Under the pieces are notes generated by a model that ran no database searches, was not told the DNA's origin, and saw nothing but the letters and a program-made list of their open reading frames with translations. A program made the translations under genes and the position numbers. A stretch of 64,000 nt of DNA from Macrostomum lignano (taxonomy: Eukaryota), in contig NIVC01000112.1 in assembly GCA_002269645.1 (NCBI GenBank), positions 330,520 to 394,519 on the forward strand, given 5' to 3'. Positions 2,540-44,686 of the stretch are shown here, piece by piece (position 1 is the first letter of the stretch; each line of letters starts with the position of its first letter).

Positions 2540-3638
2540 TGTAAAGGGCCCCTCCCGATTTCTTTCTAAAAATAGCTATCGGTTATTACATTTTAAATTC
2601 ACGCCAAATAACTACGACGCATTTTGTTTTACTACTCGTATTTTTGATAATATTTTACGCGAATTAATTTTTGTTAAAAATCTAATAGAATTTTACTATA
2701 AATACAGGCAAATTTGGCGGAGGGAGAAGCAACCTCGCGCATCGCGGTTCGCAATAAGCAATTGATAGCAAATAGAAGAGTTCCGAGAAAATAAGAATTG
2801 AAGAAGTGTTTTCCGTGTTAATTCTTTTTTTAAGAAAGAGTGAAGTAGACGGAAGTGTGTACCGTATATACTACTGAGAAGGAAAGTGTTGAGTAGTAAG
2901 AAGTTGCGAAGTAGATCTGAAGTAATACGTGTAAGAATAACCGGAGGCTGTGACCCTCTGATCTCGGTAACGCCCAAGGACTTGCAAAGTACATGAAATA
3001 CATATACCAGTAAGCCAAAATACCGCTCAGGCCATTATTAAGTAGAACGCTACCAGAATAATAGAACGCTACCAGAATAATTAGAAGAGTTAAATCTCAG
3101 GGCTAACAGTTTTTCTAAGACTAATACTCAGACTAAATACTCAGACTAAATACTCAGACTAAATACTCAGACTAAATACTCAGACTAAATACCCAGACCT
3201 ATTCTAAGAAACATTTCTCGGATTATTCTAAGATTGATAAACTCACAATTTATTAATAGGATAATCCTGGTGGCAGCTACCAACTTAAGAGATTAGTAAA
3301 TTAGCCCTGTGATAGCTTTTGGTGACAGTGTGAAATTATTATTAAGAAGAAAGAATCACCCCTGTTACAACTTTGGTGGCATTTAGTAGGATTCTCAGTG
3401 CACAGGAAACACACCTAGTACAACTTTGGTATCAGCGGTGAGATTAAAATTGATAAAGTAGGAGGTGAAACATCTACGACAACTTGGTGGCATAACGGTG
3501 AAATTCTTATAGAGAGCCAAAAGGCCTACGACAACTTGGTGGCATAACGGTGAAATTCTTATAGAGAGCCAAAAGGCCTACGACAACTTAGTGACAGCGG
3601 TGAAATCATTTGTAGGGACAGAAGTTACCCCTACGACA
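2540..3638 (+). repeat. 5' LTR (1099 bp)
   Basis: TGTAAAGGG...CTACGACA. TATAAATA at 2697-2704, 13-bp tandem (ACTCAGACTAAAT) at about 3124-3200, att/PBS array at 3268-3638. Confidence 0.95.
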
Positions 3639-3641
3639 ACT

Positions 3642-3652
3642 TGGTGGCAGCG
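3642..3652 (+). promoter_or_regulatory. Primer-binding site complementary to the tRNA-Leu(AAG/UAG) 3' end
   Basis: TGGTGGCAGCG(TAAAGGAT) 3 nt after the LTR end. Metazoan tRNA-Leu(AAG/UAG) ends ...AUCCCACCGCUGCCACCA. Confidence 0.8.
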
Positions 3653-3657
3653 TAAAG

Positions 3658-3918
3658 GATCAGAGAAACGGCCAGAATCGAACAGATCAGAGAAACGGCC
3701 AGAATTTCAGAACTAGACAGATCAGAGAAACGGCCAGAACTTCAGGACTAGACAGATCAGAGAAACGGCCAGAATCGAACAGATCAGAGAAACGGCCAGA
3801 ATCGAACAGATCAGAGAAACGGCCAGAATCGAACAGATCAGAGAAACGGCCAGAATCGAACAGATCAGAGAAACGGCCAGAATCGAACAGATCAGAGAAA
3901 CGGCGAAGAACTCCGGCA
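3658..3918 (+). repeat. Tandem array of about 9 copies of a 27/35-bp unit in the LTR-element leader
   Basis: Unit GATCAGAGAAACGGCCAGAATCGAACA; two copies have a 35-bp variant. Confidence 0.95.
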
Positions 3919-3966
3919 ATTGAAAATCATCAGTGAGAAATTTCTTTTAGGAACAGTAGAAGAGAG

Positions 3967-4557
3967 ATGGCCAATGCCAACGATGCAATCGCTAGGCTAG
4001 CTGAAGAGCTGTCAAAGAAGCTAGGATTAGGAACGGAGAAGCAATTAGAGATTGAGAAGTACACACCTGACAAAAACATCAGGCAGTGGATCAATGCATT
4101 CGAGCAGCAATGCAGGATGCAAGGACTGAATGGAGAAAAACGAAAAGTAGCTCTTTTCGCCAATCTGGATATCCCAGAAGAATTGAAGCGGAGGATGAGC
4201 CATAGACAAGACCAGCAGCACTATCAAGACATTAGGCGACAAGTTATTGAGCAGTTCGAAAGGAAGCAGCAGAAGCAGGAGGAGAATGGAGTCCAAGCCC
4301 TAGTCGAGTGCTTGATGACCCTGACGGTCATATTGACAAATCTGAACTTAGAACAGAAATCAGAACAGCAGCAGCAGTACAAGTACCAGACGGCGCCAAA
4401 ATCGCGCCCGCCGCACAGATTTAGTGGCGCCAGACCAGAGCCAAACCCTGGCCACTGCTTTTTCTGTGGTCAGCCAGGACCAATCAGGCCACAGGCAGGT
4501 CATAAATGCAGATTAAACTTAGGAGGAGCTAAACAGCGAGCTCAGGAGAAAGGATGA
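3967..4557 (+). CDS. Gag-like protein (196 aa) with a degenerate CCHC knuckle
   Basis: ATG start after the PBS/leader. EKYTPDKNIRQWINAFEQQC resembles a Gypsy capsid N-terminus. CFFCGQPGPIRPQAGHKC has Pro at the expected His position. Confidence 0.7.
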   Translation: MANANDAIARLAEELSKKLGLGTEKQLEIEKYTPDKNIRQWINAFEQQCRMQGLNGEKRKVALFANLDIPEELKRRMSHRQDQQHYQDIRRQVIEQFERKQQKQEENGVQALVECLMTLTVILTNLNLEQKSEQQQQYKYQTAPKSRPPHRFSGARPEPNPGHCFFCGQPGPIRPQAGHKCRLNLGGAKQRAQEKG

Positions 4558-5099
4558 GAGTAATTTTCTGTAAGCACGAAGCGATTATACATGTATATAG
4601 TATCAATGAAAATATAAAAATTTATAAAAAGCTTCGAAAAGAAAATAAAAAATGACCGTACAGAGTATATAATGCACATAATTACCTAATGGTGCCCCAA
4701 AAGGGCCGTTTTAGCAAAAGACCGCTTATGTAAATCGCTAGCTCATTAAAATGTTTGACATGCATGATTATTATAGTACTGTATTATGTAAATACGTCAC
4801 TATTGCACAAATTTGCTTGAAGTAAAATAGCTCAGAAAGGTTTCCCTAACAAAATACGGTATAGAAGCCTCAGAAGGGCCGTTTTACCGAAGTTTTCGAA
4901 TAGACTCTTAGCATATTTGAAATGACTAGAATTAACATTATGTAACTGTGTAAATATTCACTATGTAAATAGCACACTAAACTACGCAAAATTAAGTCTC
5001 CAGAAGAGCCTTAAAGAATTAGGTGACCCCGAAAAGGGCCGTTTTGACAAAGAAAATTCAGAAAATCAACAAAAACAGGTTTGATTCGGTTAGTTAGGC

Positions 5100-6160
5100 T
5101 GCTCAGAAAGTAAGATAGGAAGTCTACAATAAGCGTCGGAGTAGTGAGAAGCTCTGTGAAGAAGAAATAATTAAAGAATTAATGTAATAAACTCTGACAA
5201 TAGGCAGTAGAGAGAAGAGAATACAGGACGCTGAGAAGTTGAATTGAAGAAGAAGACGAGAATTTGAGAGGAATCGAGAATTAGAGAAGAAAAGGTGTGC
5301 TAAAAGCAAGAGGTAGACTAAAGACTTTTTGTTACCATTGAGTGACGTAGTCTAGTCACACCCTCAAGCGCTAATAGACACCAAGTAGAAGAGAATCAAG
5401 AGTAGTCGAGAAGCGAATTTGAAGAAGTGAATTCAAGAGAAGAATTCGAAGAAAAATCAAGAAGAAGTACATAAGCAAAGTCAAAGAAGTGAACCAGAAG
5501 AATTGAGAGTTTGATAAAGTGAGGAGAAAAATTGTGAGAAAAAGCCAAGAAAGATCCGATCAGCTATCTCATGGTGTCCCTCTTTAGATCAGATATCATT
5601 GCTGTCTAAATGGATGCGATAGTCTGTGAAGAACAAAAATAAGAGAGATGAGAAAAGAAAAGAATTTGTCAGAGAAAATCTAAAAATAGAAAGAACGGAA
5701 ATTTCTTGATCCCGCTTAGGAAGGCACGGCACAGCCATTTTAAAGTCCTTTCTCAAGGATCCTGAAAAATTGGAAAAGAGAAATATGAGAGATGGAATAC
5801 TGGAAGGAGTGCTCACTGTTCTTTTGGAGAAAGCAAGGTAGTCCAATGACAGCCAATTTTAGCCCATTCCTGAGAACATAGCATTTTCGGAAAGTAAAGG
5901 CTTGAAACCAAACTAATCCAATAATTACATAACTAACTATCGAATAGAGAAGGAGAATTTGAGCATGAAGATGAGTCAACAGATAGTGAGAAGACTGAGC
6001 CAGCCGAAACAGATGACGCATTAGAATTAGATAGGAGAGAAAGAAATGAAGATGGAAGGATTGAGCATAGGCCGCATTATAATTTGAGACCAAGAAGTGA
6101 GAGAGTTGTCACCTCAGGATTCGCCCCCCGCAGGCGATACGGCCATTATCTGAAATGATC
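5100..6160 (+). pseudogene. Heavily decayed pol/integrase C-terminal remnant
   Basis: A-rich and stop-ridden. RPHYNLRPR at 6069-6095 resembles the typical Gypsy integrase tail (YNLRPR). Confidence 0.35.
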
Positions 6161-6384
6161 GAATCAAGTATCAAATTGTAAATAGAATTTGCTTAAAATC
6201 AGAAAAATTGCTCTGTAAATAGAAATCTGTTGTAAATAATAAAAATTGACAAAAATATAAAAAGTTTAAAAATATAAAAACACAAAAACATTGCGCATTA
6301 CTAGTAGTAGAAATAAGAGAATTGTGTGAAGGAATCCGAAGTCAATAAATAATCCTAGTAACGCTTAGCAACGGTGCGCCGCTC

Positions 6385-6560
6385 TGAACCAATGAGAGCC
6401 CGCGAAGCGAACGCTAGAAAGCCACTATGGTTGACGAACACGTGACCCCACTAAACCCCTCGAAAGCGAAAGCGCGAACACAACGATGCGGTCCAGTTTT
6501 TCGGCTGGTCGCATATAAATACGAAACCCCATAGAGCTCACAAAACCTCATATTTCACAG
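6385..6560 (+). promoter_or_regulatory. Internal Pol II promoter upstream of the cargo ORF
   Basis: CCAAT at 6389-6393, TATAAATA at 6514-6521, ATG at 6606. Confidence 0.55.
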
Positions 6561-6605
6561 CAATTAGTTCGTTCTTAGGAGACTAGAAATTCTGTTATAG
6601 CGAAT

Positions 6606-7648
6606 ATGAGCCACGTTGACGATATTTTGGAAGAATTGCTGGGCGGAGCCCTGTCAGATAGCGACCTGTCAGAAGACGAAGCACCGAGACAGCCGGCTCC
6701 AGCGCCAAGACCGCCGACTCCGCCGCCCGCTCCTGCTCCAAGACCGCCGACTCCGCCAGCCCGAGCGCGTCAAGCCCGCGAGAGAGACCGTCAGCATCAG
6801 CGGAGATCGAGGCACCATTACGTTGCTCAACACGACCAAAGCTTCCAGGAGACTCCAGCAAGCGGCCGAGGCCGCCATCGCCAACGTCGAGCCAACGACT
6901 GCAGGTGGACGGGCCGACACGGCCGAAGCGGGCAGCCATCCTGCAGGCCGCCGCCGCTGCTCCTGTGCGAGTTTATGCGGCACCTTCGAGTCAAGGATCG
7001 GCAGCCAGCAGCGCAGCATTCGAGCGACGGACAGTTCAGCTCCAGCCCCCAGCAAGTGCTCCACCATCGGGGCGACGCCAGCATGCCGCAGCCGCCGTCG
7101 TTACACCTCGCCAGCAGGCCGCCGCCGCCGCTACACCGCGCCAGCAGGCCGCTGCCGTCGTTACACCGCGCCAGCAGGCCGCTGCTACACCTCGCCAGCA
7201 GGCCGCCGCCGCCGCTGCACCGCGCCAGCAGGTCGCCGCCGCCGCGCCCCGTCAGCAGGCCGCCGCTGCCGCTGCACCACGACCGCCACGACCTGAGCTC
7301 GCAGGAAGCTACCAGGAGGTGGCACAACGCCTCATCGAGACAGGCGAGCCGGTCGAACGAGTTCGTTTCGGCCTGATGCAATATTTGCAGCGCATCGGCC
7401 ACTTGCGCTTAGATCAAGCGCTGCCGCAACGTTCGCAGGCTTGGGCCGCCATCAGAGCGCTGCGCGAACTATGCTCATCAACCGAGGCAGTGGCGCTTCT
7501 CCAGCACATCGCCGAAGAGCTCCAGCGCATCATGAGAGCTGATTCTCAGGTAACCCAGCGACGCCTACTAAACATTGAATTGCGGTGGATTTTTGGCCTC
7601 CTAGGCTGGCCCTATTTTCGCGAACTCCCGAACCCTTGCAAATTCTAG
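6606..7648 (+). CDS. Unknown cargo gene of the LTR element: acidic/Pro-rich N-terminus, PRQQAAA repeats, helical C-terminal domain. Needs splicing or frameshift to join frames.
   Basis: GC-rich island. ATG ORF 6606-7376 starts MSHVDDILEELLGG..SDSDLSEDE. An overlapping frame open from 6662 to 7648 encodes the protein-like SYQEVAQRLIETG...IELRWIFGLLGWPYF. Confidence 0.55.
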
Positions 7649-7996
7649 GCAGGTTTTCTTATTACCGGTGTGCTTTTCCGATCGTTTCCGTCGTATTTTT
7701 CTATGTTGTTTCTAATCTTCCTAATCTAGTTTACTAGTTTTTCTGTTTTATTCAATGGTAATTGCCACACATGATCTATCACTTTACTGCTTATCCGATT
7801 GTTTTGTTTTATGCCTTTATCACATAATTTTGTGCCTAATACTTTGCTCATGACTATTGCACGTAGTATTCACAAATTGTTTAGTTTTTAGCACTTCGTT
7901 TATGCACCTTTTCTTGCATTTTAAAATTTTTGCACTCGCATACTTATAGTAGACTGTAGTAAGCTCGTTTAAAAATTTTTTTTAGGGGAGGCAGGT

Positions 7997-9095
7997 TGTA
8001 AAGGGCCCCTCCCGATTTCTTTCTAAAAATAGCTATCGGTTATTACATTTTAAATTCACGCCAAATAACTACGACGCATTTTGTTTTACTACTCGTATTT
8101 TTGATAATATTTTACGCGAATTAATTTTTGTTAAAAATCTAATAGAATTTTACTATAAATACAGGCAAATTTGGCGGAGGGAGAAGCAACCTCGCGCATC
8201 GCGGTTCGCAATAAGCAATTGATAGCAAATAGAAGAGTTCCGAGAAAATAAGAATTGAAGAAGTGTTTTCCGTGTTAATTCTTTTTTTAAGAAAGAGTGA
8301 AGTAGACGGAAGTGTGTACCGTATATACTACTGAGAAGGAAAGTGTTGAGTAGTAAGAAGTTGCGAAGTAGATCTGAAGTAATACGTGTAAGAATAACCG
8401 GAGGCTGTGACCCTCTGATCTCGGTAACGCCCAAGGACTTGCAAAGTACATGAAATACATATACCAGTAAGCCAAAATACCGCTCAGGCCATTATTAAGT
8501 AGAACGCTACCAGAATAATAGAACGCTACCAGAATAATTAGAAGAGTTAAATCTCAGGGCTAACAGTTTTTCTAAGACTAATACTCAGACTAAATACTCA
8601 GACTAAATACTCAGACTAAATACTCAGACTAAATACTCAGACTAAATACCCAGACCTATTCTAAGAAACATTTCTCGGATTATTCTAAGATTGATAAACT
8701 CACAATTTATTAATAGGATAATCCTGGTGGCAGCTACCAACTTAAGAGATTAGTAAATTAGCCCTGTGATAGCTTTTGGTGACAGTGTGAAATTATTATT
8801 AAGAAGAAAGAATCACCCCTGTTACAACTTTGGTGGCATTTAGTAGGATTCTCAGTGCACAGGAAACACACCTAGTACAACTTTGGTATCAGCGGTGAGA
8901 TTAAAATTGATAAAGTAGGAGGTGAAACATCTACGACAACTTGGTGGCATAACGGTGAAATTCTTATAGAGAGCCAAAAGGCCTACGACAACTTGGTGGC
9001 ATAACGGTGAAATTCTTATAGAGAGCCAAAAGGCCTACGACAACTTAGTGACAGCGGTGAAATCATTTGTAGGGACAGAAGTTACCCCTACGACA
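7997..9095 (+). repeat. 3' LTR (1099 bp)
   Basis: No differences from the 5' LTR seen by eye; the two ORF-track translations inside the LTRs are identical. Preceded by the PPT and followed by the TSD. Confidence 0.95.
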
Positions 9096-11840: not shown

Positions 11841-14050
11841 CTCAACTTTGGCTCGGGCCCAGCGCGCAACTTCTGGTTCCCAGAGCACGACCGTCGTTTC
11901 TTGATCCCCGGATTGCGACTTCCCCCATCATCATCAAGGACGAGTCCCCCGGTCGACAGCAGCGAACATCAAGCAAAGATCATCACCTGCTAGCTAACAG
12001 CGAAGATTGTGACAGCATCATTCCGAATCTACAGCTGCAGAGCATCGAGCCGATTCGGTCGCTGTGGATTACCTGGTCTCCGGCTGTTGAGTTTCTGATT
12101 GGTTGGGTGAGAGGCTACCTAGACTTGCTTGATTGGGTGATCCCTTGTCTGTCCCCTGTTGCAGTAGCTGAATTAGGCGCACACTTTTGCTCATTTTGTT
12201 CAGTGGTGCTGTTACTGAGGCAGAAATCATTCAATAATACTGCCAGTAGTCTGAAACTCCAATTCGATCCGAAGTGTGAAGTGATCTAAGGAGAAGGTTA
12301 AATCTGACAGTTATTTTTATCGGTTTTAGTTCTTTGTTCGCCGAAGGCTCAGATGAGTAGCTAAGCTAGTAGGCGCCGGTCACAGTGGACCAATGGCAAG
12401 GCGGTTCTCAGTCGATCAATCAATCAAATCAGTGAGCAAAACTGCCAGAAGTGCAGAATCGGCGCCAGAGATGTACTTTGTGCACTCTAGGTTAGCCAAG
12501 CGGCTCGGGTAATGAATCATGCGGTCTCTGAAGTTCGAGTTAGTCTATCATCAGCGCTATGAGAGGCTAGTTGGCGCGTTGAAGGCCAAAAGTACATATC
12601 TTCGTATTTAGCAATGTAATAGTACATGTAGCTACCCCATAGACTCGCCACTGCAAGAATCCCCTGCACAAGTCCCCTCTGTACCTGCATGGCCAATGCG
12701 ATCTAGTCCCAGCAGTGTCCCTTATCATCGGCTATGACTTCGAGATTGACAGCAAAAAGACACTAGTTGGCAGGTAAGTGCAAAGCCCCTTCTAGTCGGA
12801 AGCCCGATTTCGAGAGTCCCGGTGTGGTGAGCCAGGGCGTACGGGCTGGTGGCAGCAAGTTAGTTGATCTGCGGATTAGCTAATTTCTACTTTCAAAATT
12901 CTCCCTGCTCATCTCTCGCTGTCCCTCTCTTAGCTATAGGACCTAGACTGCTCGCCACACGATCAAGCTACCATGGGGCTGACCATCTGACAGGAGTGGG
13001 GGCCAGGTCTCTAATTGATTTATTTCTGAGCCTGAGGCTCGAAGGCTTCCCTAACAAGGAGCCCGAAGGTCGAAACCCATCAATACATTTACATGTACAT
13101 GTAGCACATAATTTATCAAATTGCGCAGTCATTGTGGGAGTCATTCAATATCAGTGTAGGTTTTGCAAGTGACTTTTTCCAGCTTTGGAACAAATGAAAT
13201 TCTCACCCAAATCCCGCAGCTGCCTTTGATATGATCCCGACTCCACAATCGTACATGTACATGTAAAAAACCCATGCACTGTGCCCTTCTCACCTGTAGC
13301 TAGCCTTTTTATTAGAGCCAGGGGGCTGTGTGCACCCTGCCACACTAATTTAAGCGACATTCAAATGGTAATTCATCAAAAAATTATAGTTAAGACACGT
13401 CAGTCCCGGCAGTTGCGGGGGACACATGAAGTTGCCCAAAAGTTCACCAAAGCAGTCACACATTGACGCATACATACGACAGCATGTGCAGTCGGCATTA
13501 CATGTACATGTACACCAGAGCACGACACGGTAAAGCAACCTCCCAAGAAATTCTATCATAGAAATAGTACAAAATTACCAAAATTAGCAATTGACGGGAA
13601 ATTTATCAAAGCACAGCAATAATTCGAAAATTGTTTTACCTTTGTCTACAGCAAGACCATAGCTAAATTGCAACAGTACTCAAAGTAGTATGTGGTCTAC
13701 ATGTATAATATACATTTGGAGAAAAACAACACGGCTTCACACTAAATAATTGCATGCATTTTCGAATTGCTTCCCCAAACACGATTAATGACGAATCTAT
13801 GCATGAAAAATTGCAGAGCACCGCAAGCACGCGCATCCGTGATGACAGAGAGCACTTTCCTGGAGCTCCTTTCGGCAGAAAAAACAGTGCAAAACATTCT
13901 GTGGCCTTGGCCTTAAATTACAAGGAATTTGTTCGCATGAAGTGAAAACAGAAAAAAGTAGTGCCTGAAAATTTAAAAGGAGGACTAGCTTCATGACCTT
14001 AATGAGAATTGCTCTATTAAGCTGCATCTGACAACGGATCAATGGCGTCA

Positions 14051-14860
<810 letters not shown>

Positions 14861-18232: not shown

Positions 18233-22754
<4,522 letters not shown>

Positions 22755-43774: not shown

Positions 43775-43819
43775 CTGGAATGATGGCGAGTAAGTACGTT
43801 GTGTTTCGAATTTGTGAAG

Positions 43820-44665
<846 letters not shown>

Positions 44666-44686
44666 TGCCAGCTCAGAAGCCCTCAC

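Follow-up and report, generated by a model that had tools for sequence, protein, structure and literature searches.

The window, a 64,000-nt stretch of the Macrostomum lignano genome, contains an LTR retrotransposon with an extra open reading frame, ORF3, ahead of its 3′ LTR. As judged from sequence comparisons, ORF3 is a real and conserved gene that defines a Ty3/Gypsy clade in M. lignano. It is read in one frame, is found in elements with and without pol, and may encode a nuclear trans-acting activator.

The window element

The element occupies positions 2540–9095. Its paired LTRs, TSD, and PBS-like and PPT sequences class it as a Ty3/Gypsy LTR retrotransposon. The two LTRs are 1099 bp long, begin and end with TGTA..GACA and display no mismatches. 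The features are:

2540–3638, + strand: 5′ LTR, 1099 bp, TGTA..GACA, with TSD TATT on its 5′ side
3639–3652, + strand: PBS-like TGGTGGCAGCG, immediately after the 5′ LTR, a putative tRNA-Leu match
3967–4557, + strand: short Gag-like ORF of the pol-less lineage, ~197 aa, 35% identity to autonomous Gag over aa 4–155
4558–5830, + strand: purine-rich non-coding middle, common to pol-less copies, no pol remnant detected
5950–6158, + strand: integrase tail, last codons and start of the 3′ module; 95.8% identity to L046 from 5949 onward
6389–6393, + strand: CCAAT box, upstream of ORF3
6490–6500, + strand: GGTCCAGTTTT motif, upstream of ORF3, conserved in relatives
6514–6521, + strand: TATA box TATAAATA, predicted internal promoter, conserved in relatives
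6606–7648, + strand: ORF3, one gene, intact in three siblings; window copy frameshifted near 6759
6606–6680, + strand: acidic amphipathic N-terminus, candidate activation domain; predicted helix at residues 4–13
6790–6960, + strand: linear motifs APLRxxTRP, KRPR (candidate NLS) and KRAAIL helix, conserved and coding
7310–7645, + strand: folded five-helix C-terminal domain of no known family (predicted fold, selection)
7983–7995, + strand: polypurine tract (PPT), preceding the 3′ LTR
7997–9095, + strand: 3′ LTR, followed by TSD TATT

In run X1, position 2535 is directly linked to 9096 in one contig, which represents the empty site; the insertion therefore looks very young and is probably polymorphic. 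In ORF3-bearing relatives the pol order is PR-RT-RH-IN in 4/4 pol ORFs; the window copy itself has no pol. The nearest unnamed RT-RH relatives show 47–50% identity.

One reading frame

The original prediction described a GC-rich island in which the protein signal moves through frames 0, 1 and 2. The island is present (GC 63–71% at 6601–7500 vs 33–45% on both sides), three plus frames are open together over 6662–7293, and the peptides quoted are all found in the window translation. However, the movement between frames is not seen in related copies. A DNA search of the M. lignano genome gave 14 matches. The three closest siblings (L001/L045, L003/L046, L004/L047) are 96–99% identical to the window and carry one open reading frame of 347–358 aa, from MSHVDD to PCKF. 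This single ORF is intact in 3/3 siblings. The siblings differ from the window by one common single-base indel near 6759 and 4–6 substitutions; L046 displays in addition an in-frame 33-base repeat difference. In four runs, every contig covering site 6759 (2, 1, 1 and 2 contigs) agrees with the siblings and none with the window. The frameshift of the window copy is either an assembly error or a fresh mutation (contigs drop rare variants).

Substitutions over 6760–7100, counted at codon positions 1/2/3 of the C-terminal frame, are 3/4/34, 5/4/29, 22/20/49, 18/19/52 and 26/14/53, a third-position excess in 5/5 comparisons. Thus the frame-1 peptide is an off-frame reading. Overlapping ORFs, also suggested originally, are at variance with the third-position excess and with the one ORF of the siblings. 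The three-frame appearance of the window copy is, on this sequence evidence, a single-base break in one gene.

Alternatives in which the gene is spliced, spans several overlapping frames or was captured from the host are hardly credible. A GT..AG pair of 146 bases does exist at 6790–6935, where an intron joining frames 0 and 2 had been proposed, and its removal would restore the frame. However, the siblings do without an intron, and the supposed intron codes for APLRxxTRP, KRP and KRAAIL, which are conserved and under selection. The 6790–6935 joint is absent among the 11 joints listed from run contigs, which show presence and not absence. As the three siblings display a single frame, a three-frame or intron model is unneeded.

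Distribution of ORF3

Two ORF3 protein searches of the genome gave 150 and 151 matches, with only 150 candidates scored in each; a hand count of the overlap leaves ~250 places in what is a redundant assembly. Sixty-nine elements, picked mostly for long frames, were examined and 37 of these contain RT. A script test for intact ORF3 is passed by 28 of the 37, L092 being a false pass. The deep groups of the RT tree and the ORF3 tree agree, which indicates that ORF3 is ancestral to the clade. By these sequence criteria ORF3 is a clade-wide feature, pol-carrying elements included. The earlier idea that the gene was retained while pol was lost does not fit this distribution, and the pol-less lineage gains ORF3 as a 3′ cassette.

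A profile search of 1.84 billion representatives gave 9 hits, consisting of 5 named Macrostomum lignano records, 1 Logan cluster and 3 that were rejected. The rejected hits (P0007–P0009) are repeat-driven. In this search named relatives of the C-terminal domain are found only in Macrostomum lignano. NCBI lists three family members as named gene models, and three named ORF3 proteins are identical, letter for letter, to translations from the genome. The M. lignano annotation that holds these models is described as built from transcripts (PMC5730564). Word-index searches gave no ORF3 homologue; known members were missed as well, so these searches are insensitive. One metagenome scan showed no homologue.

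A sister Gypsy clade (RT-RH 64% identical) carries an ORF of 240–290 aa in the ORF3 slot (L131:5956–6780, L133, L135, L137). Its end aligns weakly with the ORF3 domain over 90–94 columns (hhalign E = 0.034 and 0.0066), and 0, 0, 3 and 42 of 500 shuffles reach the four scores. On these alignments it is a probable, unproven homologue of ORF3. The acidic stretch of the sister-clade ORF is internal. The ORF begins 4–5 bases past the pol stop with no intergenic promoter, a position that suggests re-initiation or another promoter. In a more distant Gypsy element, too, pol is followed by a third ORF, whose sequence is of low complexity and whose start is acidic (L136:6078–6998); it gives no significant match to the ORF3 profile.

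Literature searches showed no paper describing ORF3, nor one combining Macrostomum, retrotransposon and ORF3, and they likewise turned up no account of the protein family, of the cassette exchange or of the truncated host copy. In a term search of an M. lignano LTR survey, "ORF" is absent from the main text (PMC12801592). Four ORF3 gene-model ids were not found in those published supplements that were searched.

The pol-less lineage and exchange of ORF3

The original prediction placed ORF3 downstream of a decayed pol. In the window the pol profile matches the integrase tail only (~5830–6155, E = 3e-11), with nothing significant over 4558–5830. The window element is, by sequence, a member of a pol-less lineage in which pol is replaced, not decayed. 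The short Gag-like ORF has 44 matches in the genome with dN/dS of 0.14–0.25, and ends in CFFCxxPGPIRPQAGHxC, a zinc-knuckle-like motif of longer spacing. The middle of the element is common to pol-less copies, and the 3′ module is 95.8% identical to that of the autonomous element L046. Such pairing of pol-less and autonomous 3′ modules recurs in L072/L101, L099/L078 and L092/L080. ORF3 is intact in 13 of 15 short-Gag elements, a sample chosen by ORF3 hits from which L085 and L090 were dropped as decayed autonomous copies. In contig C1833 three short-Gag units are found in tandem.

The autonomous elements L070, L072, L074, L075 and L076 show RT dS values of 0.02–0.06. Their C-terminal ORF3 domains are 46–75% identical with dS >1.2 or saturated. 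The RT-RH protein is identical among L068, L077, L092 and L099; C-terminal domain identity is 47% for L068/L077 and 66% for L077/L099. In five pol-carrying pairs with near-identical cores, a DNA identity of 94–96% stops at the ORF3 promoter or start. Near-identical cores with diverged ORF3, together with the point at which identity ends, indicate that ORF3 and U3 behave as an exchangeable module: as read from these alignments, near-identical gag-pol cores exchange ORF3 plus U3 as one cassette. Because the two lie next to each other, joint exchange is no proof that they act as a pair. The cassette exchange illustrates how elements could renew a promoter and a regulator with the enzymes kept.

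Diversity of this kind is what would be expected if ORF3 were a silencing suppressor that protects its own family against silencing by piRNA or chromatin. Many deeply diverged ORF3 + U3 types are found on near-identical cores, as in an arms race, and tandem repeats are present in LTRs and leaders. VANC of the VANDAL DNA transposons is a precedent for blocking the silencing of one's own family, and VANC proteins and their tandem-repeat targets are reported to diversify together (PMC5735166). However, purifying selection acts on the C-terminal domain, where dN/dS does not exceed 0.26 in any pair, and the universal acidic N-terminus suits direct activation at least equally. A role as a silencing suppressor is considered unlikely; it would overlap with activation if derepression were the mode of activation.

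The predicted ORF3 protein

The C-terminal domain gives dN/dS values of 0.06–0.26 in 8 of 14 pairs, with dS saturated in the remaining 6, and a significant synonymous excess in 13/14. A ratio near 1 was to count against the gene in the original prediction; the values found point to purifying selection. AlphaFold predicts five helices for this domain with pLDDT 91 and pTM 0.84. In the model of the whole protein there are two more helices, a short one at the N-terminus and one in the centre, the rest being disordered. The predicted fold of the domain is confident; searched against PDB and BFVD, Foldseek returned nothing at E ≤ 0.001. The VIA structure search returned generic helical bundles (best Z 7.3, none at 8 or above), Pfam and PDB-sequence searches with ORF3 were blank, and an Atlas search gave no usable feature match. 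The modelled domain belongs to no known family; blank searches do not make a new fold. Duplication of Gag as its origin was tried and rejected (hhalign vs the element's own Gag, E = 0.24). A J-domain is not indicated, with no HPD in the family alignment and a DnaJ match in 0/22 members.

The first 25 residues carry a net charge of −5 to −9 in 27/27 element proteins, and PhixxPhiPhi is present in this acidic segment in 19/27. Among control windows from protein middles, 3 of 205 are as acidic. A dibasic pair or KP(K/R) is found in the protein middle in 26/27 (a loose test), PxRxxTxP in 22 and the central helix motif in 23 of the 27. The middle and the C-terminal domain are net basic, and the last 110 residues contain 0–2 cysteines. 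The highest Kyte-Doolittle 19-mer is 0.63–1.03 in 13/13 family members, and the original view that the protein has no TM anchor and is not env-like is borne out. The envelope hallmarks of signal peptide and transmembrane anchor are likewise not displayed, hydropathy being ≤1.03 in all 13 and the N-termini acidic.

Two further alternatives bear on these features. As a Rev- or CERV-like factor, ORF3 would bind and export unspliced genomic RNA. This is in keeping with its place in the env slot, with the lack of a homologue beyond the genus-level host group and with the net basic charge of its middle and C-terminal domain; an animal Gypsy element offers a precedent, CERV of Cer1 (PMC10309623). However, ORF3 has its own start, 0–2 Cys and an all-helical model, whereas CERV is spliced with a cysteine finger and a G-like domain, and an acidic N-terminus is not expected of such a factor. 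RNA export is given a small chance only. A similarly small chance is given to a protein that stays in the cytoplasm, plays no part in transcription and serves in host manipulation or exclusion, as an adaptor, particle co-factor or incompatibility factor. Adaptors typically combine short linear motifs in a disordered chain with a small helical bundle, as is seen in ORF3, and many co-existing ORF3 types could mean mutual exclusion, but NLS-like basic motifs and the acidic helix are conserved and the domain is unlike the element's own Gag (hhalign E = 0.24).

Sequences upstream of ORF3

CCAAT at 6389 and TATAAATA at 6514 are present where the original prediction placed them. TATA, CCAAT and GGTCCAG are conserved upstream of ORF3 in the branch of the window element. 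TATAWAW is found at −125 to −60 in 13 of 28 ORF3 representatives (shuffle expectation 1.9%), GGWCCAGYTT (the GGTCCAGTTTT motif) within 200 bp upstream of the ATG in 14/28, and CCAATSA, i.e. CCAAT(G/C)A, upstream in 10/28; because the representatives are related, these counts are not independent. TATAWAW is absent in 15/28, the entire L089 branch among them; AT-rich control windows taken further upstream contain it in 23 of 112 cases. In six members that carry GGTCCAG the TATA box is degenerate, and the L089 branch displays neither TATA nor GGTCCAG in the interval tested. A conserved splice acceptor ahead of the ORF3 ATG was looked for and not seen. The internal promoter and the element's own U3 have no longer GC-containing word in common than the promoter has with other U3s, a comparison for which 4 of 21 elements were testable.

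Run X5, which was selected through ORF3 itself, covers ORF3 and not 4710–6557. For L099, four runs cover parts of gag-pol and none covers 7261–7874 of ORF3, with no DNA control; two of these runs stop at 6991, near an A-rich stretch. On the motif evidence ORF3 likely has its own internal TATA promoter. The original prediction of an independently transcribed, accessory, non-env gene therefore stands in part: accessory and non-env are upheld by conservation and purifying selection, and a promoter of its own is probable from the motifs kept with the gene.

Copies lacking LTRs or lacking ORF3

A 118-aa ORF3 homologue is found at L111:7713–8069 (contig C846; also L113 and L114), one locus on three near-identical contigs, with no gag, pol or LTR within the 10 kb examined. 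The truncated copy is annotated as a gene. It is without the acidic start, the linker and the last residues, and the locus keeps the GGTCCAG and TATA of the element promoter, the GGTCCAGTTTT motif lying further upstream. Synonymous/non-synonymous coding differences are 4/1, 3/2 and 1/1, too few for judging selection. The sequence makes domestication possible. One LTR-free homologue could also be taken as a sign that the gene was captured from the host, as was suggested originally. However, this sole copy is truncated at both ends and bears the promoter of the element.

In the pol-less L142 and L143 (2 loci), ORF3, TATA and GGTCCAG are lost together; a GC-rich minisatellite is found in place of ORF3 and TATA. 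Some pol-less copies have spread after the joint loss of ORF3 and TATA. Among L080-type frameshifted copies, 5/7 share one single-base break. These common breaks, with the two ORF3-less loci, indicate that ORF3 is not needed in cis.

Possible function of ORF3

LTR retrotransposons are generally thought to depend on host factors for transcription. The acidic start, basic motifs, helical domain, separate promoter, U3 linkage and dispensability in cis of ORF3 are together best fitted by a nuclear trans-acting activator of the element, like foamy-virus Tas; this analogy is put forward tentatively, at somewhat less than an even chance. ORF3 would be transcribed from ~6545 by its own internal TATA promoter, and the protein would enter the nucleus through the KRP motifs. 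The acidic helix may recruit co-activators and the C-terminal domain may target the element's own LTR or chromatin, such that ORF3 would act in trans to turn on the promoters of the element. Pol-less copies would be activated by their own or a relative's ORF3 and would borrow the enzymes. Counted against this are that TATA is not universal, that the sister clade has no intergenic promoter, that the 4 testable elements revealed no word linking promoter and U3, and that the U3 linkage follows from adjacency. Acidic amphipathic helices bind partners besides co-activators too.

A more elaborate form is quite unlikely as a whole. Here each ORF3 type would be a foamy-style transactivator matched to its own U3, the pair would move as a switch exchanged among autonomous cores and a parasite lineage that has only Gag, and the host would have kept the truncated copy, without the activation domain and with the same promoter, as a dominant-negative repressor.

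Dozens of natural ORF3 variants are intact, some insertions are young, one domain is modelled with confidence, a truncated copy has probably been kept by the host, and the animal is amenable to RNAi. Thus whether simple retrotransposons carry their own regulators becomes directly testable in M. lignano, for which transgenesis is described as established (PMC5730564).

Related systems

Extra ORFs with their own promoters are already known in LTR elements, as are pol-less Gag elements in plants. The functions of extra ORFs of LTR retrotransposons are described as mostly unknown (PMC7264820). Tas, an acidic transactivator that acts in the nucleus, is expressed from an internal promoter (PMC517496). 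Like ORF3, Tas/Bel1 is an accessory gene near the 3′ LTR with an internal promoter, that of ORF3 being predicted (PMC517496, PMC7828637). Tas/Bel1 proteins are nuclear activators of the acidic class with little homology between lineages, and ORF3 is likened to them by sequence features. However, Tas belongs to a retrovirus with env, its activation domain is C-terminal and its binding to DNA is proven (PMC517496, PMC7828637), whereas ORF3 lies in an env-less Gypsy element and has an acidic N-terminus. A Tas-type family is not among the matches listed in sequence and structure searches with ORF3, and no homology was detected.

Gene23 of maize Grande and TRP28 of Retand are conserved extra ORFs between pol and the 3′ LTR, with their own promoter and, in Grande, a nuclear protein (PMC7264820, PMC11963269). 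These are antisense plant ORFs; ORF3 is an animal gene in sense orientation, is not related to them by sequence and is exchanged with U3. Like ORF3, CERV of C. elegans Cer1 is a lineage-specific non-env protein that takes the env position in an animal Gypsy element, but it is spliced to gag exons, carries cysteine-finger and G-like domains and acts in RNA export (PMC10309623). The CERV hallmarks of a cysteine finger and a Rossmann-type G domain are not found in the all-helical ORF3 model with its 0–2 Cys. In Oikopleura, the env of Tor3b and Tor4b is a third ORF on an internal promoter, which in Tor4b is situated in the pol-ORF3 intergenic space; the Tor ORF3 is a transmembrane glycoprotein (PMC4402516), whereas the flatworm ORF3 is soluble. 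Bdelloid rotifer LTR elements likewise carry family-specific non-env third ORFs in an invertebrate, but these are recognisable captured enzymes or membrane proteins and are typically spliced (PMC5408684). Plant TR-GAG elements resemble the window element in being mobile and pol-less with two LTRs and a Gag ORF kept (PMC8704663). Unlike TR-GAG, the window element has a Gag-like ORF of only ~197 aa, which constitutes a conserved lineage of its own, and carries a second gene.

Other repeats in the window

The window LTR contains five earlier "LTR end + PBS-like" units, at 3367, 3420, 3479, 3531 and 3583 (3367–3650, and likewise in the 3′ LTR). These junction units, with varying PBS-like words, precede the true junction at 3636. 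By sequence, the LTR seems to have grown through accretion of old U5/PBS junctions. The leader between the PBS and the short gag (3655–3905) contains tandem 21-bp repeats. Window positions 2540–2705 and the U3 regions of L065, L068, L069 and L099, although of unlike LTR types, have repeated TTTGTTTTAA-like words in common and display CGCG words upstream of the LTR TATA; the CGCG words are presumably E2F-like.

The window element is inserted into the flank of a fragment of a different Gypsy element (gag, protease and RT) situated on the minus strand at 591–2477. Long arrays of an 8/12-bp unit are found in both orientations at ~13900–14700, 21200–22750 and 43800–44670.
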